From Actinomycetes bacterium (GTDB lineage: Bacteria > Actinomycetota > Actinomycetes > Nanopelagicales > Nanopelagicaceae): DNA of 64,000 bases. The stretch spans positions 689 through 64,688 of the forward strand of contig JANXZB010000037.1 of NCBI GenBank assembly GCA_025355765.1, read 5' to 3'. The notes beneath the pieces are model-generated. The model did not search any database. It worked only from the letters and a program-made list of their open reading frames with translations, and was not told the origin of the DNA. Made by a program: the position numbers and the translations under genes. Positions 7,195 to 56,519 of this stretch are shown here, piece by piece (position 1 is the first letter of the stretch; every line of letters begins with the position of its first letter).

Positions 7195-8940
7195 ATGTTA
7201 AGAACTCACGGCGCCGGAACCCTGAGAAAGTCCGATGTAGGATCGACCGTTGACTTGGCTGGCTGGGTTTCTCGTCGTCGCGACCATGGTGGAGTCGCCT
7301 TCATTGATTTACGCGATGCATCTGGTTCCGTCCAAGTTGTTATCCGCGATGAGAAGATCGCCGGCGTCTTACGCGCAGAGTGGTGCGTAAAGATTGTTGG
7401 CGAAGTCCTCGAACGGCCATCTGGCAACGAGAACACCTCTCTTGCAACTGGAGACATTGAAATCATGGCCGATCAGGTCATAGTCCTCAGCGAATCTGCT
7501 CCACTTCCGTTCCCCATCGATAGCGGCGATGACGCCGAGATCAATGAAGAAGTTCGGCTGCGTTACAGATATCTAGATCTGCGTCGAGAAAAGCCTGGTC
7601 GTAATCTTCGACTTCGCTCGAAAGTGACCTCTGTTATTCGCAACGTGATGGACGAGCAAGAATTTCTCGATATCGAGACCCCATACCTCACGCGCTCAAC
7701 TCCAGAGGGCGCACGAGACTTCCTTGTTCCTGTTCGTTTGCAACCGGGGAGTTGGTATGCCCTTCCTCAGTCACCACAACTCTTCAAACAGTTGTTGATG
7801 GTTGCTGGGATGGAGAAGTACTACCAGATTGCGCGTTGCTTCCGAGATGAAGATTTCAGAGCAGATCGCCAACCAGAGTTCACGCAACTCGATATTGAGA
7901 TGTCTTTCATCGATCAAGAGGACATTCTGGCTGTTGCCGAGAATCTTCTGGTGCGTCTCTGGAAGGAAGTTGCCAACTACGACATCACTCTTCCCATACG
8001 TCGCATGACTTATGCCGATGCGATGACCAACTACGGCTCGGACAAACCCGATCTTCGCTTTGGTCAGCAAATTGGCGAGGTCACCTCATTCTTCGCTCAG
8101 ACTCAGTTCCGAGTCTTCCAAGCCCCATATGTGGGCGCTGTCGTCATGCCAGGTGGAGCAAGTTCGCCCCGTCGAGAACTGGATGCGTGGCAGGAATGGG
8201 CCAAGACCCGGGGAGCAAAAGGCCTTGCCTACATTCTGGTAAATGCAGATGGCACTCTGGGGGGACCTGTCGCTAAGAATCTCTCCGAAGATGAACTCGC
8301 GGGGATTGCAGCCGCCGCAGGGGCCAACCCAGGCGATGCCATTTTCTTTGCCGCCGGCGAAAAGGTTTCCTCGCAATCACTTCTAGGTGCGGTCCGCTTG
8401 GAAATCGGCAAGAGGTGCAACCTCATCGCCGAAGGCACTTGGGAATTTTTATGGGTTCTAGACGCCCCCATGTTTGAGCCAACCGATAACGGCGGCTGGA
8501 CAGCGGTTCATCACCCCTTCACCGGGCCAAAGCCGGAGTTTGCGACTTCCTTTGCAGAGAATCCGGGCCAAGCTTTGGCGTACGCGTACGACATCGTCCT
8601 TAACGGCAGCGAACTTGGCGGCGGTTCAATCCGTATCCACGATCGCGAGATGCAGCGAAAAGTCTTCGAGGTAATTGGGCTAAGCGATGAAGAGGCTGCT
8701 AGCAAGTTTGGGTTCCTCCTTGAGGCGTTCAACTATGGTCCGCCACCGCATGGAGGCATAGCGCTTGGACTTGATCGTGTCTGCGCTCTCCTTACGGATT
8801 CCGATTCCATTCGAGAAGTGATTGCCTTTCCAAAGACGGCAAGCGGAGGAGATCCTTTGACGGGTGCACCAACCCCGATTACACAGGCTCAGCGCAAGGA
8901 AAGTGGCATCGACGCCATTACAGATAAGTCAGGAAAATAG
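7195..8940 (+). CDS. aspS: Aspartate--tRNA ligase
   Basis: Typical AspRS N-terminus ([11 protein letters not shown]), OB fold, QSPQLFKQ motif and class II catalytic core. The ORF track starts 12 nt upstream at a GTG. Confidence 0.95.
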
Positions 8941-51089: not shown

Positions 51090-52967
51090 TCATCCTTTGA
51101 GCACCTTAGCTGACACTAATTGCCGCGTAAGCAAAGGGTCCAAATGCACGGCAAAATCAACGCTCATGTGCGTGGAATCCCGATAGACAACAATCCCCTT
51201 GAGTATCGCTGGACATGATGTGGAGCAGAACCAATTTGTCGGATCAATGATGGTATTTGTGCTACCAAGACTCTGGCCTAACCACTGCTCCGAGGCGGGG
51301 CGGGAAACGGCGCATGACGCGACTTTCTCCTGTAAAAGACAGGAAGGAATATCCCTATTTGGCCAAGGGGTGTCCTGGATGTAGATGGAGTGCTGGGTTA
51401 AAGCATGCAAGCGAACCATCGTGGACGTAACACCTTTTCTCCACCAGAGTGCGGCGTCCGCGACACCATTCGGTGGCGAATAATGCTCAAAATTAGAGAC
51501 GACTACCGCCCAAGGATGCTCTGCTTGAATTCTTCTAAATGAATTCTCGCGCCAAAGCTGGCATGGGCCATTGCGAAAAGCACCTTGATCTGCAAGTTGA
51601 ACACTTGCCGCAGGGCAACTCGATTTAGTGAGAACTACCAATTTGAAGCCACCATTTGCGGCAATTGAATTCAAGGTCGGAAACCACTGCGCCGCATGTG
51701 AGTCCCCAAAGAGAAATATCGACTTGGTTCCGTAGATGTCGCCATAGACACACGGTGGTGAGGTTGTGGCCGTCTTGCCCACTTGGCAGCCATCAGCGTA
51801 AATCGCCGGTAATCGGGTAATGGCCTTAAGTGCGGTGGTACCTGCGATTCCTCTGATCTGTAGATCCTTAGCCGAAGAGTAGGAAATTCCTACGCCCAGA
51901 ATTGACACTATGAGCGTGCCGAGCGCGGCGAGGCGAATTACGGACGAGAAGGGTTTGTGAACATGGCGTAAGGGATTCTCCACGAAGCGATGCGTTAAGC
52001 CAGCAAGTATGAAGGTTAGAGCAATTGAACCTAACCGCTGCAGAATTGAAAGCGGGGCATGAATGACGTAGATAGGAAGGACTAAAGCTGGCCAGTGCCA
52101 CAAATACAAAGGATAGGAGACGTCACCGATCCATTGAATTAACCGCAGATTAAAAACCCACGAGAGCACAGGAGGTAACTCCTTGACCAGAAAAAGTAGC
52201 AAGGCCGCCCCAAGGGTCGGCAACAGGGCCGCTCGCCCAGGGAAAAGCGTGTTCTCGTTGAACGAAAATGCTGCAACGAATATCCCCGCCAGGGCCAGCC
52301 AACTCGCAGAGCGCAGTCGACGAAACTCTATGGGAAGGTCGCGCGCGAACACCACGAGTGCGCCAAGACCGAGTTCCCATGCCCTTGTCGGAAGTGAATA
52401 GAACGTCCAAATCGGGAACTTTGACGTTGCGAACAATGAGAGTGCGAATGAGAAGAGGGTGACCATTGCAAGGACCTTGAAAACCCGCGAACTTCGACTA
52501 TTTCTTGCAGCTATCAAGATAATTAGAGGCCAGAGAAGGTAGAACTGCTCCTCGACGGCAAGTGACCAGAAGTGGATGATCGGTGACGGAGTTGCCCCAA
52601 GATTTTGGTAATCATTTTGCCACCAGGCGAATACGTAGTTGCTCACGTACAGTGCGGCCGCGACAATATTTCGCCCGAGGTTTGCTCGCGCACTTGAGGG
52701 CATCACTATAAAAGAAATGACCGCCGTCGAGACAAGAACGAGAAAGGTGGAGGGGAGGAGTCGTTTGATTCGTCGCGAGTAGAAGTTCGGCAGAGAAATG
52801 GACCCTGTCTCTTTCAGCTCTCGCAAAAGCAGACCCGTTATGAGATACCCCGAGATCACGTAAAAGATATCGACGCCTATGAATCCGCCCGAGAGAAATT
52901 TGCCGTGGAAGGCAATGACCAGAAGCACCGCCAAGGCACGCAGACCTTGAATCTCTTTGATACGCAT
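51090..52967 (-). CDS. Acyltransferase-3 family membrane O-acyltransferase with C-terminal SGNH-like domain (OafA/YrhL-like)
   Basis: 625 aa with the N-terminus IQGLRALAVLLVIAFH, about 10 TM helices and an extracytoplasmic C-terminal domain (FLFGDSHAAQW). Its start overlaps the apt stop (TAATG). Confidence 0.85.
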   Translation of the reverse strand: MRIKEIQGLRALAVLLVIAFHGKFLSGGFIGVDIFYVISGYLITGLLLRELKETGSISLPNFYSRRIKRLLPSTFLVLVSTAVISFIVMPSSARANLGRNIVAAALYVSNYVFAWWQNDYQNLGATPSPIIHFWSLAVEEQFYLLWPLIILIAARNSRSSRVFKVLAMVTLFSFALSLFATSKFPIWTFYSLPTRAWELGLGALVVFARDLPIEFRRLRSASWLALAGIFVAAFSFNENTLFPGRAALLPTLGAALLLFLVKELPPVLSWVFNLRLIQWIGDVSYPLYLWHWPALVLPIYVIHAPLSILQRLGSIALTFILAGLTHRFVENPLRHVHKPFSSVIRLAALGTLIVSILGVGISYSSAKDLQIRGIAGTTALKAITRLPAIYADGCQVGKTATTSPPCVYGDIYGTKSIFLFGDSHAAQWFPTLNSIAANGGFKLVVLTKSSCPAASVQLADQGAFRNGPCQLWRENSFRRIQAEHPWAVVVSNFEHYSPPNGVADAALWWRKGVTSTMVRLHALTQHSIYIQDTPWPNRDIPSCLLQEKVASCAVSRPASEQWLGQSLGSTNTIIDPTNWFCSTSCPAILKGIVVYRDSTHMSVDFAVHLDPLLTRQLVSAKVLKG

Positions 52968-53500
52968 TACACGGTGAAGATCGAGTGCACTGGAACCTCA
53001 GGAAATTCCAAGGCGATTCGCTTGCGAGATTCTAAAGAAGAGATTTCGAGAACTGAGCCGACCGCCGACACGGTTCCCCCTGATCGGGAGATCAACCGAA
53101 TGCCGGCGCAGATTGTTCCTCCAGTCGCAAGTACATCGTCTATAAGGAGGACTCGGGACCCAATTTCGATGGCATCTTGATGAATTGCGATGACATCTGA
53201 ACCATATTCAAGGCCATAACTTTCCTCATGAGTGTCGAAGGGCAATTTGCCTTTCTTGCGTATGGGTACGAACCCCAATCCAGTTGCATATGCAATTGCA
53301 GCTGCAAATATGAAGCCGCGCGCTTCAACACCGGCCACGACGTCGCACGCTTGGGCAAGCGGCATAAATTCTGAGATGACAGCCTGGAAGGAGGGGCCGT
53401 GGGCAAGTAATGGCGTCAAGTCTTGGAATGAAATCCCTGGAATGGGGTAGTCAGGAATCTGCCTTATTAAGGCGCGAGCCTGCGCCAGGGCTGAATCCAT
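52967..53500 (-). CDS. apt: Adenine phosphoribosyltransferase
   Basis: 177 aa with IPDYPIPGI.F.D.TPLL and the PRTase motif (VLLIDDVLATGGT). Confidence 0.94.
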   Translation of the reverse strand: MDSALAQARALIRQIPDYPIPGISFQDLTPLLAHGPSFQAVISEFMPLAQACDVVAGVEARGFIFAAAIAYATGLGFVPIRKKGKLPFDTHEESYGLEYGSDVIAIHQDAIEIGSRVLLIDDVLATGGTICAGIRLISRSGGTVSAVGSVLEISSLESRKRIALEFPEVPVHSIFTV

Positions 53501-53551
53501 GTAGGAAGATTACCGCCAATCGCGCCGCCCTTAGGCTCAAAATCGCCTACA

Positions 53552-53652
53552 CCCACAAGGTGCATGGTCAATTTATCCAGAACTCTCACAGAATGGCGAC
53601 CCAATCTTGCGTTGTAAAGCAAATCAGCTTTGCACTTGCGAGGAGGTACCTC
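53552..53652 (+). promoter_or_regulatory. Conserved ~100-nt leader, copy 1 of 3 (unknown cis-regulatory element)
   Basis: Aligns with 54503-54605 and 55508-55610. Shared blocks are CCCACA.GGTGC.GG.TC.ATTTA, CAGAACTCTCACAGAAT and GCTTTGCACTTGC..GGAGGT.C.CATG. Confidence 0.6.
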
Positions 53653-54420
53653 ATGAAAAGAAACAAGATCGTCACAGCCACACTGCTAAGTGCTGGCTTG
53701 ATCTTAGGAACAACGAGCGCAGCATTTGCTGTCGACCCAACACCTACTGCAACTGTGACCACGGCTAACTACAACTCTCAGGTAGCGGCGTACAACTCTT
53801 CACTGATTGCATTTGATAGCGCAACTGCGACATTCAAGCTTCAGGTAGCTACGTATGCGACGGCGTTCCAGGTGTACAAAACTTCATATAACACTGCACT
53901 CCAGACTTACAAAGCAATTCTGAAGGCGAACTCGCCTGCAACCACCGCCGCCCAATACGCGGTCTTAGTGACTGCGTACAACACCGCAATGACTGCCTTT
54001 ACCACCGCTACGGTGACTTATAAGGCCGCATTGAGTGTTTACCAAGGTGCTGGAGTAACTTACAAGAGTGCATTCCAGAGCATTTCACAGGCTTACAAGG
54101 CTGTCTCTGAATCACGCGAACAGTTGAAGAAATCCATCAATGGTGCTTTTGACACTGCAGTTCACAATGCGAATGTTGCGTTCGCCAATGCAATGTCAAC
54201 GGCCACAACTGACGCTCAGAAAACTGCTGCCACCAATGCTCGTCAAAATGCGATTGCTGCTGCAGTCGTCGCCCGCAAAGCAGGCATTGACGCCCTAGGC
54301 GTCAAGCTTGTAAAGCCAGTGAAGGCTGAGATCAAGGTCAGCTCCAATGACGACAGTTTCAAGGCTGATCGACCAGTACGACCAATTCGACCAGCTCATC
54401 CTGAAAAGCCAAAGAAGTAA
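53653..54420 (+). CDS. Secreted Ala/Thr/Tyr-rich heptad-repeat protein, paralogue 1 (unknown function)
   Basis: The ATG lies 8 nt after a GAGGAGG RBS. It has a Sec signal peptide (MKRNKIVTATLLSAGLILGTTSAAFA|VD), a low-complexity helical mature region and a Pro/Lys-rich C-terminal tail. Confidence 0.8.
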   Translation: MKRNKIVTATLLSAGLILGTTSAAFAVDPTPTATVTTANYNSQVAAYNSSLIAFDSATATFKLQVATYATAFQVYKTSYNTALQTYKAILKANSPATTAAQYAVLVTAYNTAMTAFTTATVTYKAALSVYQGAGVTYKSAFQSISQAYKAVSESREQLKKSINGAFDTAVHNANVAFANAMSTATTDAQKTAATNARQNAIAAAVVARKAGIDALGVKLVKPVKAEIKVSSNDDSFKADRPVRPIRPAHPEKPKK

Positions 54421-54433
54421 AGTAATGAATTAA

Positions 54434-54490
54434 TCTCCGAGAATCGCGGAGATGCAAGAAACCCCCGGCATGCGTCGGGGGTTTCTTGCA
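54434..54490 (+). terminator. Two consecutive hairpins after paralogue 1 (small hairpin plus 15-bp perfect-stem terminator-like hairpin)
   Basis: TCTCCG(54434-39) pairs with CGGAGA(54447-52). Then TGCAAGAAACCCCCG(54453-67) pairs with CGGGGGTTTCTTGCA(54476-90). Confidence 0.7.
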
Positions 54491-54502
54491 TCACGGGAGT
54501 GG

Positions 54503-54605
54503 CTCCCACAAGGTGCTGGGTCGATTTACGCAGAACTCTCACAGAATTACCCCCCAGTCTTTGGTTGTAGAGCACATTTGCTTTGCACTTGCAGGGAGGT
54601 TCCAC
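54503..54605 (+). promoter_or_regulatory. Conserved ~100-nt leader, copy 2 of 3
   Basis: See copy 1. It ends in GCAGGGAGGTTCCACATG. Confidence 0.6.
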
Positions 54606-55430
54606 ATGAAAACGAAGAAGATCATTACGGCCACACTTTTGAGTGCTGGCTTGATCTTAGGCAGTACGACCGCGGCCCATGCCGTGGATCCGACACCTAC
54701 TGCAACTCTCACTTTGGCTACTTACAATTCCCAGGTAGTCGCATATAACTCCTCGCTGATTGCATTTGACAGTGCGACAGCCACATTTAAAATTCAGGTA
54801 GCCGCATATACGACCGCTGTTCAGACTTACCAGACTTCCTACAACACGGCCCTTCAGACCTACCAAGCAATCCTTAAGGCCAATTCCCCTGTTACTACTG
54901 CGGCTCAATATGCCGTCTTAGTGGCTGCCTACAACACGGCAATGACTTCATATAACGCAGCTACCGTTACTTTCAAGGCGCAATTAAGCACCTTCCAAGC
55001 AGCAGCTGCAATTTACAACATTGCATATCAGGGCGTTCGCCAAGGGTACAAAACTCTTGAAGAGATGCGTGAGCAGTTGTTGAAGTCAATAAATGTTGCC
55101 TTCAACACCGCTGTTCAGAATGCAAATGTTGCTTTCGCAACTGCCATGTCGACAGCGACAACCGATGTTCAAAAGAGCACCGCGGTAACTACTCGTGACA
55201 GTGCAGTCGTTGCAGCCGTTGCGGTACGCAAAGCTGCTCTTGATGCCTTAGGTGCGAACCCGGTAAAGCCCGCCAATCTGCAGGTAAAGACAGGCGACAA
55301 GGACAAGGGCTTCAATGCCTTTAAGCCTGTTCAACCTGTCAAACCTGCTCATTTTGAGAAGGCTGACAACGCACGAAGCTCTAACAATTCACATAAGTCT
55401 GGTAAGTCACATAAATCAGAGAAGCATTAA
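54606..55430 (+). CDS. Secreted Ala/Thr/Tyr-rich heptad-repeat protein, paralogue 2
   Basis: Signal peptide MKTKKIITATLLSAGLILGSTTAAHA|VD. By eye it is roughly two-thirds or more identical to paralogue 1. It has a Ser/His/Lys-rich tail. Confidence 0.8.
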   Translation: MKTKKIITATLLSAGLILGSTTAAHAVDPTPTATLTLATYNSQVVAYNSSLIAFDSATATFKIQVAAYTTAVQTYQTSYNTALQTYQAILKANSPVTTAAQYAVLVAAYNTAMTSYNAATVTFKAQLSTFQAAAAIYNIAYQGVRQGYKTLEEMREQLLKSINVAFNTAVQNANVAFATAMSTATTDVQKSTAVTTRDSAVVAAVAVRKAALDALGANPVKPANLQVKTGDKDKGFNAFKPVQPVKPAHFEKADNARSSNNSHKSGKSHKSEKH

Positions 55431-55484
55431 TCTCCACAAATAATTGGAGAGGTGAAAGAACCCCTGGATCGTCGGGGGTTCTTT
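55431..55484 (+). terminator. Two consecutive hairpins after paralogue 2
   Basis: TCTCCA(55431-36) pairs with TGGAGA(55445-50). Then AAAGAACCCC(55455-64) pairs with GGGGTTCTTT(55475-84), followed by TG. Confidence 0.7.
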
Positions 55485-55507
55485 TGCATGCCGGGGAGAA
55501 CTTTTCA

Positions 55508-55610
55508 CTCCCACACGGTGCTGGGTCGATTTACGCAGGGCTTTCGCAGGGTGACACAGCATTCTTATTACGTAGAGCACATCAGCTTTGCACTTGCAGG
55601 GAGGTTCCAC
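55508..55610 (+). promoter_or_regulatory. Conserved ~100-nt leader, copy 3 of 3
   Basis: See copy 1. It carries CAGGGCTTTCGCAGGGT in place of CAGAACTCTCACAGAAT. Confidence 0.6.
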
Positions 55611-56354
55611 ATGAAGACAAATAAGTTCATCACGGCCACACTCTTGAGTGCTGGCCTGGTTCTGGGAACAACGAGTGCGGCTTTTGCCGTCGATCTTGCG
55701 CCAAGGGCAAATTTGACCGTTGCTTCATACTCATCACAAATTGCCACATATAACTTAATGTCGGCCTCGTTCGACGCCGCAACCGCGACATTTCGAACTC
55801 AAGTATCCACATATGCTGCTGCCATAGCCGCATACAAGGTTTCAGATGCCGCATTGCAGCAGACCTATCAGGCCATACTGAAGGCCAATGTTCCTGCGAC
55901 CACTGTCCTTCGCTTTGCAAACGTGATGACCGCCTATAAGACGGCCACCGTTGCTTACAACAGTTCTGCAACCCTATTCATGTCGCAGTCCAACACCTAT
56001 CAATATGCCGTGCAAAGCTACGAGAAGTCTTACCAAGCTGCCATCGCCAGCTACAAAGTCACCCTTGGCATGTACGAAGGTCTTTACGCCACTATCTATA
56101 CGGCGTTTGAGACTTCCATGCATAATGTCAACTCCACCTTCGCCGTTGCGTTGAGAGCTTCTAAGACCAAGGCTCAGAAAGCTAGCGCCATCAAGGTGCG
56201 CCACATCGCCGTGCTAGCTGCTATCGCAACTCGTAGTGCGGCCCGCGTGGAGCTCGGAGCTAAGCCAATGAGCCCGATCCAGCAGATCAAGATTGGACAG
56301 AAGGCTGATGCTTTCAAGGCTCTTCGTCCGGTCCGTCCAGTGAAGTCGGCTTAG
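55611..56354 (+). CDS. Secreted Ala/Thr/Tyr-rich heptad-repeat protein, paralogue 3 (most diverged)
   Basis: Signal peptide MKTNKFITATLLSAGLVLGTTSAAFA|VD. It has the same aromatic register as paralogues 1 and 2 and a shorter tail (RPVRPVKSA). Confidence 0.8.
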   Translation: MKTNKFITATLLSAGLVLGTTSAAFAVDLAPRANLTVASYSSQIATYNLMSASFDAATATFRTQVSTYAAAIAAYKVSDAALQQTYQAILKANVPATTVLRFANVMTAYKTATVAYNSSATLFMSQSNTYQYAVQSYEKSYQAAIASYKVTLGMYEGLYATIYTAFETSMHNVNSTFAVALRASKTKAQKASAIKVRHIAVLAAIATRSAARVELGAKPMSPIQQIKIGQKADAFKALRPVRPVKSA

Positions 56355-56411: not shown

Positions 56412-56435
56412 TATGTGAAAACGGGAGGATCCTTG

Positions 56436-56519
56436 TGTCCGAACGGGGACTTGAACCCCGAAGCCCTTGCGGGCACTAGCACCTCAAGCTAGCGCGTCTG
56501 CCAATTCCGCCACCCGGAC
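56436..56519 (-). tRNA. tRNA-Leu (anticodon GAG)
   Basis: The reverse complement folds as a class II tRNA: acceptor GUCCGGG/UUCGGAC, anticodon stem CUAGC/GCUAG with loop UUGAGGU, a long variable arm, and a T-arm CGGGG-UUCAAGU-CCCCG. CCA is not encoded. Confidence 0.9.

Follow-up and report, generated by a model that had tools for sequence, protein, structure and literature searches.

The cpxP and zraP genes of Proteobacteria are divergently transcribed from their own regulator-kinase operons and are activated by the regulator that each operon encodes. Their products, like Spy, are small exported all-alpha hairpins. Here we analyse a 64,000 nucleotide stretch of contig JANXZB010000037.1 from a member of the Nanopelagicaceae (the window), which carries three tandem plus-strand paralogues at 53653-54420, 54606-55430 and 55611-56354, with open reading frames (ORFs) that translate to secreted proteins of 255, 274 and 247 amino acids (53653-54417, 54606-55427 and 55611-56351 without the stop codons). 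These genes appear to be an expanded and relocated branch of an undescribed secreted helical-hairpin family of mostly freshwater Actinomycetota. Members of this family resemble CpxP, Spy and ZraP as small exported all-alpha hairpins, and the short relatives also share the divergent regulator-kinase layout. However, they have no sequence match (LTXXQ, Metal_resist) or fold match to that family and are found in a Gram-positive host. They also carry a one-face aromatic stripe and a basic Pro/Lys tail, and the window genes have been amplified away from the two-component system locus. The likeness is one of context and not of membership. We somewhat favour the view that the proteins form an undescribed family of the cell envelope under two-component-system control, whose scaffold is an antiparallel coiled coil with an aromatic core and whose biochemical role we infer. 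This view draws on a sequence pattern, its conservation, the homology of long and short forms, gene linkage and a common promoter box, all directly observed, and on a predicted fold.

Several described protein architectures are relevant to this comparison. Antiparallel two-helix coiled coils and 'Alacoil' hairpins (the colicin E3/E9 receptor-binding hairpin, the AcrA/MacA alpha-hairpin, SH3BP5 and Smac) are likewise long helix-turn-helix rods with a heptad a/d seam and small flanking residues, and were the best but non-significant Foldseek neighbours of our models (E about 0.05 or worse). The proteins studied here differ from these in having a d position that is almost exclusively Tyr/Phe over 12-16 consecutive heptads and an outer surface that is near-uncharged, and we regard the likeness as a common architecture without evidence of homology. 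Aromatic residues at a heptad core position, stacked as a zipper, are found in the 'phenylalanine zipper' of APS/SH2-B and in designed Phe/Trp-zipper bundles. Such zippers are designs, or short domains for dimerisation or oligomerisation, and have aromatics at both core positions or in parallel bundles, whereas the window protein would be a natural secreted bacterial hairpin of ~110 residues with an aromatic at one core position only. Mycobacterial HBHA adhesins combine a coiled coil with a C-terminal Lys/Pro/Ala-rich polyanion-binding tail, and have no cleavable Sec signal peptide and no aromatic stripe. The similar order of a helical coiled-coil body followed by a disordered basic Lys/Pro tail in the window proteins may suggest non-covalent attachment to anionic polymers, but no sequence similarity to HBHA was detected and this is an analogy only.

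Residues were numbered from the first mature residue, V1 of VDPTP. The original prediction, made from the letters of the window, had described a strict seven-residue spacing of Tyr and Phe in two blocks of paralogue 1. All of the positions that it listed were correct: Tyr or Phe occupies residues 14, 21, 28, 35, 42, 49, 53 and 60 in block 1 (residues 14-60; 53770-53910, + strand) and residues 76, 83, 90, 97, 104, 111, 115 and 122 in block 2 (residues 76-122; 53956-54096, + strand), and the same sites are aromatic in paralogue 2. The further claim that every site is Tyr or Phe in all three proteins held for paralogues 1 and 2 and for the other sites of paralogue 3, but not for site 53, which is Asp in paralogue 3. 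Among homologues this site is aromatic in 11/18 and non-aromatic in 7/18 (Asp in six, Thr in one). Paralogue 1 has a single off-register Phe at position 46, and the stripe of paralogue 3 runs further, with sites at 129, 133, 137 and 140. Within residues 1-130, aromatic pairs at lag 7 numbered 13, 12 and 12 in paralogues 1-3, against a shuffle mean of ~2 and a maximum of 8-10, and the observed count was reached by 0/100,000 shuffles. These counts took the place of a Fourier test, in which power at period 7 over the same residues was weakly significant (172-375 of 20,000 shuffles) because the +4 phase shifts at 49 to 53 and 111 to 115 split the signal.

The stripe is conserved well beyond the window. 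In an alignment of 19 homologues, 15/16 stripe columns were 89-100% aromatic, and aromatics filled 1.2% of cells in the non-stripe columns of residues 8-130. Tyr outnumbered Phe in the stripe (69% vs 27%). Loss of the aromatic register in homologues from other genomes had been named as grounds for abandoning the pattern; the register was instead kept down to ~40% identity. Conservation at 15/16 sites, together with a gene-wide ratio of non-synonymous to synonymous substitution rates (dN/dS) of 0.09-0.18, bears out the proposal that the register is under selection. Taking the aromatic as position 0, the heptad reads Y/F, then K/N/Q/D at +1, A/T/S at +2, A/Q/L/V at +3, L/V/T/I/M at +4, A/Q/V at +5 and A/T/S at +6. 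The small or aliphatic tendency reported for +4 was also seen here, with L/V/T/I/M in ~78% of cells across the 19 homologues. The assignment of the aromatic to heptad position a has to be revised, as canonical notation makes the aromatic d and the aliphatic +4 residue a. In these terms the stripe appears to be an ordinary a/d core seam (3-4 spacing) with an unusual residue at d. The stripe region contains 7 K/R and 1 D/E in 118 residues, and its outer face is rich in Ala, Thr, Ser, Asn and Gln.

Shifted by 62 residues, blocks 14-60 and 76-122 give a gap-free alignment (AAYNSSLIAFDSATATFK vs TAYNTAMTAFTTATVTYK; z = 11.4, 9.8 and 5.1 in the three paralogues), and they are an internal 62-residue duplication and not two independent heptad runs. 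Between them lies the conserved KAN(S/V)P(A/V)TT turn with Pro69 that had been noticed earlier, and which we located at residues 65-72 (KANSPATT in paralogue 1; 53923-53946, + strand); Pro69 is near-invariant among homologues. We predicted the structure of mature paralogue 1 as a monomer with AlphaFold2 (AF2), using a 19-sequence alignment. The model had a mean predicted local distance difference test score (pLDDT) of 81.6 and a predicted template modelling score (pTM) of 0.63, with helices at 11-66, 73-157 and 161-189, non-helical residues at 67-72 between the first two helices, and a disordered segment of ~30 residues at the end. The pLDDT of helices 11-66 and 73-157, which contain block 1 and, in the first part of helix 2, block 2, was ~90. 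Since helix 1 (56 residues) and helix 3 (29 residues) together match the length of helix 2 (85 residues), the protein would form a rod two helices thick, of ~12 nm.

A non-helical or disordered protein had been put forward as the outcome that would count against a helical hairpin; the predicted body is helical, and only the tail is disordered. The antiparallel hairpin was recovered in that helices 11-66 and 73-157 flank the KANSP turn, but it makes up only the N-terminal half of a three-helix, two-layer rod. Nor is the second helix confined to block 2, as AF2 extends it to residue 157 before a third helix (161-189) folds back. A heptad core on one face, and two long helices joined by a tight turn in the prediction, are the features of the antiparallel coiled-coil hairpin class. 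The Tyr/Phe stripe with its +3 and +4 neighbours is the sole hydrophobic face of the helices, and because the only hydrophobic face in a two-helix rod has to pack there, the stripe would be buried at the interface. Of the aromatic ladder or zipper surface that had been suggested, a buried zipper seam is most likely the form that applies, rather than an exposed ladder. We therefore hold with good confidence that these proteins are secreted helical rods with the Tyr/Phe stripe as their coiled-coil seam, and lean towards a hairpin that is intramolecular over pairing that is purely intermolecular. In Foldseek searches of the PDB, both the long model (best E = 0.046) and a short-relative model (best E = 0.57) matched nothing but long helical hairpins of a generic kind. 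Homology to AhlB/SmhB, the PcsB/RipA coiled coils, SH3BP5, colicins and AcrA was rejected, as these matches were generic and non-significant. An antifreeze-like reading (type I antifreeze protein or Maxi), prompted by the Ala/Thr-rich helices, was set aside because the periodicity is 7 and not 11 and no other support was found.

We searched Pfam, NCBIfam and PDB sequences with the three paralogues and found nothing significant (best matches LprI, E = 0.13, and DUF4253, E = 0.11); ten distant relatives likewise had no Pfam match. A word-indexed search returned 17 close homologues, all without names, and every database name among the homologues is 'hypothetical protein'. An exhaustive profile search extended the family to 317 proteins; roughly a dozen of these are full length, the overall count of full-length homologues being only about 20. 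The remainder are mostly secreted proteins of 140-240 amino acids that match the C-terminal module only (mature ~115-200 of paralogue 1). In paralogue 1 this hairpin module, common to ~300 shorter secreted proteins, spans residues 126-195 (54106-54315, + strand) with the pattern REQLKKSINGAF..AVHNANVAF..ATT..QK..AR..AI.AA..ARK...ALG..VK. Alignment of the long and short families with hhalign gave a probability of 99.9% (E = 3.8e-34), and the ~100 extra residues of the long form correspond to the expanded stripe. Matching genomes were metagenome-assembled genomes (MAGs) from water, soil and groundwater, assigned to uncultured Actinomycetota and Candidatus Nanopelagicaceae. No described family seems to contain these proteins, which would make them an undescribed family with an unusual aromatic-core design. 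A literature search on aromatic-heptad secreted hairpins and acI phosphate-regulon proteins found nothing usable.

Across 145 representatives (50% identity clusters), aromatic pairs were enriched at lags 7, 11, 14, 18, 25 and 29 (z = 15-41), with depletion at most of the remaining lags. A single file of aromatics on one face therefore characterises the family as a whole, and the window proteins appear to be the most extreme version. The AF2 model of the short relative P0196 (56 sequences) consists of helices H37-83 and H87-115 at pLDDT 97-99, with an unpaired N-terminal overhang of ~18 residues that carries Phe at spacing 7. The striped segment of the shorter relatives, lacking an intramolecular partner, probably pairs between molecules. 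The stripe region of the long form may have arisen by duplication of such an ancestral N-terminal overhang helix, with the duplication and the KANSP turn supplying an internal partner. Natural two-module fusions with a Pro/Lys linker also occur, in P0008 (425 amino acids, L019 1436-2713), P0018 (507 amino acids) and P0022 (326 amino acids), and could model how two rods pack together.

The window genes lie between apt (52967-53500, - strand) and a tRNA-Leu/M20 peptidase gene, a position that is syntenic in 7/8 related MAG loci (L001-L006 and L008; L007 has a different context) and that holds one, two or three family copies in related MAGs. Outside this apt-M20 interval, all six relatives with informative flanks adjoin, divergently, an operon encoding an OmpR-type regulator and a HisKA kinase. 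These are P0196, P0070, P0041 (with a second paralogue), P0233, P0225 and the long-form aromatic-striped gene of L007. The adjacency is kept though the other neighbours of the six loci differ. The arrangement resembles that of cpxP and zraP, but is not found in the window, where a putative promoter box persists. The linked kinases have two transmembrane segments around an extracytoplasmic loop of 100-120 amino acids. Among PDB sequences, the best match of the linked regulator was Mycobacterium tuberculosis PhoP (173 bits), followed by PrrA (163), RegX3 (146) and MtrA (145). The recognition helix of the regulator, TVVDTYISYLRKKL, is similar to NVVESYVSYLRRKI in PhoP, but 3/6 base-contacting residues differ. 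The regulator is unlikely to be MtrA, as its scores of 172-195 bits fall short of the equivalog cut-off (300) and the kinase gene has no LpqB gene after it. The ancestral position of the family would seem to have been divergent from an OmpR-family regulator/histidine kinase operon.

Other features of these loci were also recorded. Some genomes have two tandem family members beside the two-component system (L013 5053-5685 and 6001-6717). In four loci (L009, L012, L013 and L017) a Methyltransf_32 gene follows the kinase, which suggests a regulator-kinase-methyltransferase operon. The long-form gene beside the two-component system in the L007 MAG from Hainich groundwater (7681-8699) is broken by a masked N run, which leaves its exact length and its number of stripe repeats unreadable.

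To our knowledge, no comparable secreted helical protein is present in the described PhoP or PhoR regulons. M. tuberculosis PhoP binds TCACAGC repeats with a 4-bp spacer (PMC4832192), and the best Corynebacterium glutamicum PhoR site, CCTGTGAAaatCCTGTGAA, is the reverse complement of TTCACAGGattTTCACAGG (PMC3353115). Beside the two-component systems, every intergenic region has a pair of 11-bp direct repeats followed by a 6-nt spacer and a hexamer resembling CATTAT (for example TTCACAGAAGA TTCACACCACC). We trained a position weight matrix (PWM) on the six such promoters of distant relatives only, with no window sequence included, and scanned the 127,930 positions of the window. Its 1st, 3rd and 7th ranked positions were the promoters of paralogues 2, 3 and 1, respectively. 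The promoter of paralogue 1 (53552-53607, + strand) has an in-phase CACAA unit upstream at 53552-53562, 11-bp repeats TATCCAGAACT/CTCACAGAATG at 53574-53595, a 6-nt spacer and a -10-like CAATCT at 53602-53607. In that of paralogue 2 (54505-54560, + strand), the upstream unit is a third CACAA copy, in phase and 22 bp ahead of the repeats TACGCAGAACT/CTCACAGAATT (54527-54548), which are followed by an ACCCCC spacer and a -10-like CAGTCT. That of paralogue 3 (55510-55565, + strand) has an upstream unit, TACGCAGGGCT/TTCGCAGGGTG at 55532-55553 and a -10-like CATTCT. Other top hits in the window (15285, 37202, 41371 and 51325) were dismissed as chance, as they lie inside long ORFs.

The box starts exactly 79 nt before the ATG in all three window genes, and the best upstream hit of the PWM was also exactly 79 nt before each ATG in L001-L008, L018 and L020, ranking 1-3 in each locus. 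The DNA from -105 to -1 is 70-90% identical among orthologues and window paralogues, as compared with ~25% from -125 to -106, while coding dS in the same set ranges from 0.8 to over 2, close to saturation. The regulatory DNA (53548-53652 in the window, and its equivalents) is more conserved than the proteins; paralogues 1 and 3 are 70% identical in this DNA and 47% in amino acids. The boxes described here consist of two or three in-phase TCACAG(C)-like 7-bp direct repeats with a 4-bp spacer, with unit 1 degenerate in the window. They agree with the published sites of M. tuberculosis PhoP (TCACAGC-n4-TCACAGC, PMC4832192) and C. glutamicum PhoR (PMC3353115), and M. tuberculosis PhoP is the closest solved relative of the linked regulator. 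The differences from those regulons are that the regulator falls under all NCBIfam equivalog cut-offs and that half of the base-contacting residues are changed. A literature search for the MprA box returned nothing usable. Taken together, the window genes probably belong to the regulon of a PhoP-type two-component system.

Paralogue 1 encodes a 255 amino acid precursor and a 229 amino acid mature protein. Paralogue 2 has the same architecture, and paralogue 3, the most divergent copy, has an orthologue that is the last copy in L002, L003, L005 and L008. A Sec signal peptide of 26 residues is present in each paralogue, with a basic n-region, a hydrophobic core, an A-F-A site and cleavage between MKRNKIVTATLLSAGLILGTTSAAFA and VDPTP. 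In paralogue 1 it spans 53653-53730 (+ strand), with an A-x-A cleavage site and no lipobox Cys, and a Sec signal peptide is kept in all homologues. The mature proteins are ~24 kDa with a pI of 9.6-10, and contain 19-21% Ala and 10-12% Thr. The disordered, basic Pro/Lys/Arg-rich tail of paralogue 1 (PVKAEIK...DRPVRPIRPAHPEKPKK; 54316-54417, + strand) has 9 K/R and 6 P in 34 residues, with pLDDT < 50 at residues 200-229, and P-x-K-P repeats occur in the tails of all relatives. None of the three paralogue sequences contains an LPXTG motif, a C-terminal hydrophobic segment or a Cys after the signal peptide, and they do not appear to be covalently anchored Gram-positive surface proteins or lipoproteins. 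They also do not resemble the WXG100/ESAT-6-like class, as the turn is KANSP, a cleavable Sec signal is present and there is no Pfam hit.

The Shine-Dalgarno sequence GAGGAGG lies 7-13 nt before the ATG of paralogue 1, and the true start of each gene is the ATG that comes after its GGAGG Shine-Dalgarno sequence. Starts assigned by gene callers (P0001 and P0002, 324 and 320 amino acids) and by mechanical ORF finding in the window (53410-54420, 54486-55430 and 55452-56354) are 20-80 codons too early. These over-extended ORFs cross the conserved promoter and 5' untranslated region (5'UTR), and the N-terminal peptide that results (..FPQNSHR..ISFALAGRFHM) is only spuriously 'conserved'. A conserved 5'UTR hairpin, GTAAAGCA-loop-GCTTTGC, is located between the putative -10 and the Shine-Dalgarno sequence of each gene (53614-53633, 54567-54586 and 55572-55591, + strand). 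RNAalifold on 15 homologous UTRs gave a stem of 7 bp, 2 pairs of which show compensatory changes, and the hairpin may be an mRNA-stabilising or translational element. An Rfam search of the conserved upstream regions found nothing, the only match being the downstream tRNA-Leu. Terminator-like hairpins follow paralogue 1 (54451-54492, + strand; 19-bp stem, -42.5 kcal/mol, z = -6.0) and paralogue 2 (55452-55487, + strand; 16-bp stem then TTTT, -31.9 kcal/mol, z = -4.2). The hairpin after paralogue 3 is weak and non-significant (-29.8 kcal/mol, z = -1.3), and a generic sigma-70 and terminator scan picked up neither the promoters nor the strong hairpins. The three genes appear to be separate transcription units with a promoter each, and the promoters, 5'UTR hairpins and terminators together suggest separately and strongly expressed mRNAs. 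Comparison with orthologues gave the gene-wide dN/dS of 0.09-0.18 at dS 0.8-2, with values of 0.07-0.18 in the stripe and 0.07-0.15 in the C-terminal module, and an often freer tail (0.09-0.31). The paralogues are real genes under purifying selection.

The apt-M20 interval is a variable island (L001-L008, L018 and L019) bordered by tRNA-Leu(GAG) (window 56435-56519, - strand). The long-form relatives P0017 and P0008 are also at this locus, and P0013 lies among surface-polysaccharide genes. The L018 island also holds DUF333, short-chain dehydrogenase, DUF1326, PpoB2 and methyltransferase genes. Two genes upstream of the paralogues, in conserved synteny, is a gene for a 625 amino acid acyltransferase-3 plus SGNH protein (OatA-like O-acyltransferase; window 51090-52967, - strand); no specific link between this envelope-modifying gene and the paralogues was found. 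Two of the related loci, L001 and L006 (CAYXIS010000007.1 and CAYLYA010000011.1), are titled 'uncultured Bifidobacterium sp.'. Their flanking genes have 78-97% amino acid identity to those of the window and are syntenic with Nanopelagicaceae and Actinomycetota MAGs, and the Bifidobacterium label is probably wrong.

The stripe could be explained in other ways. Instead of closing a hairpin, the aromatic heptads might zip molecules together into dimers, four-helix bundles, filaments or a lattice, as homo- or hetero-oligomers of the paralogues. This would account for the overhang without an intramolecular partner in P0196 (H37-83 vs H87-115), for P0027, P0032 and P0038, each with one long aromatic-striped helix, and for the natural two-module fusions. 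The near-uncharged Ala/Thr/Ser/Asn/Gln outer face favours lateral packing, and three co-regulated paralogues could hetero-oligomerise. However, AF2 sets the conserved KANSP turn exactly between duplicated arms of equal length at high pLDDT, and duplication with a conserved turn is most simply read as the creation of an intramolecular partner. We consider such assembly rather unlikely, and compatible with the explanation that we favour, not exclusive of it. A second alternative makes the stripe an exposed ladder that binds a glycan by stacking on sugar rings, or a hydrophobic ligand such as lipids or humic aromatics. Planar carbohydrate-binding surfaces are typically rich in aromatics (Tyr, Trp), and a Tyr/Phe every 7 residues gives a rise of ~10.5 A along the helix, close to the disaccharide repeat of beta-1,4 glycans (peptidoglycan, chitin, cellulose). 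The single-file arrangement on one face (lags 7, 11 and 18 enriched, lags 3 and 4 not), the excess of Tyr over Phe, the secreted, envelope-proximal location and the syntenic OatA-like gene are consistent with this. Yet a two-helix rod needs the stripe and its +3 and +4 partners as its interface, these being the only hydrophobic face of otherwise polar and small-residue helices. In addition, Pfam and Foldseek PDB searches found no similarity to a carbohydrate-binding module or lipid-binding fold, and acyltransferase synteny is common to housekeeping genes and non-specific. An exposed ladder is accordingly improbable. That the stripe is a compositional artefact of Ala/Thr-rich low complexity, or that the ORFs are not genes, might be suspected from the amino acid composition and the lack of database annotations. 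This is almost certainly wrong given the low dN/dS at dS 0.8-2, the conserved signal peptide, Shine-Dalgarno sequence, promoter and terminators, the register kept in distant homologues and the high AF2 confidence of both the long and the short model.

The remaining alternative concerns function. The proteins could be CpxP-like modulators of a sensor or chaperones, the hairpin binding the loop of the adjacent kinase in feedback, or misfolded envelope proteins as a Spy-like holdase, with the stripe partly a binding surface. The layout is that of cpxP-cpxRA and zraP-zraSR, a secreted helical hairpin gene divergent from a regulator-kinase pair with the box in the shared intergenic region in 6/6 relatives. 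The extracytoplasmic kinase loop could serve for binding, and short relatives of 144-151 amino acids are CpxP-sized. Against this, neither the three paralogues (E up to 1) nor ten relatives (E up to 0.1) matched Pfam LTXXQ or Metal_resist, and no CpxP or Spy was among the top 50 Foldseek PDB hits of either model. The window lineage has also left the two-component system locus and holds 1-3 copies, at 47% identity, which is unexpected for a dedicated partner co-evolving with one kinase, and strong promoters of their own, together with the 5'UTR hairpin and the terminators, point to bulk expression of the genes. We judge this role unlikely.

Under the reading that we favour, helix 1 (11-66) would fold at the KANSP turn onto the first half of helix 2 (73-157), and helix 3 (161-189) would pack back onto its second half. 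One bulky ring every second turn of each helix would pack on the partner helix and zip the hairpin. The two-component system would sense an extracytoplasmic cue, such as phosphate limitation or envelope/pH stress, and the phosphorylated regulator would turn on the three genes. In this scheme the direct repeats 6 nt upstream of the -10-like hexamer would act as an activator site of the M. tuberculosis PhoP/C. glutamicum PhoR type in place of a -35 element. Rods would then build up in the envelope as response effectors, forming a protective or structural wall-associated layer or buffer, with the basic Pro/Lys/Arg tail as the sole candidate means of retention at the anionic cell envelope. That the proteins are envelope-retained response effectors held by this tail is a tentative proposal. 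The 'function unknown' of the original prediction has in this way been narrowed to an expanded branch of a secreted family linked to a PhoP-type two-component system, with a suggested biochemical role. A bolder version, about which we are doubtful, sees the family as specific to Actinomycetota and dedicated to a PhoP-type two-component system, as its extracytoplasmic output and possibly also as its feedback partner. The family would then be a Gram-positive functional analogue of CpxP/Spy on a natural aromatic-zipper coiled coil. In the window lineage the module would have been lengthened by internal duplication and amplified to three copies under common regulation, whose products coat or buffer the cell envelope in streamlined actinobacteria of plankton and groundwater.

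A number of observations weigh against this reading. No two-component system is present within the 64-kb window, so regulation here would follow from promoter similarity alone. Unit 1 of the window boxes is degenerate (CGCAG or TCCAG), and their absolute PWM scores (9.7-17.3) are within the best-hit range of shuffled windows (mean 13.5); the boxes are significant because of their position and conservation only, and not their score. The long-form promoters, being homologous, do not count as separate observations. The MtrA motif c-G-T/A-n-A-C/T-c, with its 4-nt spacer (PMC6265350), is loosely compatible with the boxes, and actinobacterial OmpR-family sites look alike. The regulator is below every NCBIfam equivalog cut-off, PhoB, MtrA and CseB included. 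The identity of the system, and hence its signal, is uncertain. A copy number of 1 to 3 argues against a strictly stoichiometric role. On the structural side, the pTM was only 0.63, a monomer AF2 prediction cannot separate an intramolecular hairpin from a domain-swapped or intermolecular coiled coil, and burial of the rings, although most likely, is read with the exact helix register from the heptad pattern. Envelope retention and activity are likewise what we infer.

Helical hairpins as a fold class and OmpR-type direct-repeat activator sites as a regulatory logic are both well known; what is new is an undescribed family, an unusual aromatic-core design and a plausible regulatory link. A natural antiparallel coiled coil of 110 residues with almost exclusively Tyr/Phe at one core position and an uncharged Ala/Thr/Ser exterior is unusual, and could inform the design of aromatic-core helical rods. 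Actinomycetota of the Nanopelagicales type, which rank with the most abundant bacteria of fresh water, are difficult to culture and possess very few regulators. If the proposed link is true, a conserved and apparently highly expressed secreted family wired to one of their few two-component systems would provide a handle on envelope sensing and remodelling and may mark a response to phosphate or another limiting factor, and the promoter box could predict the rest of the regulon in metagenomes.

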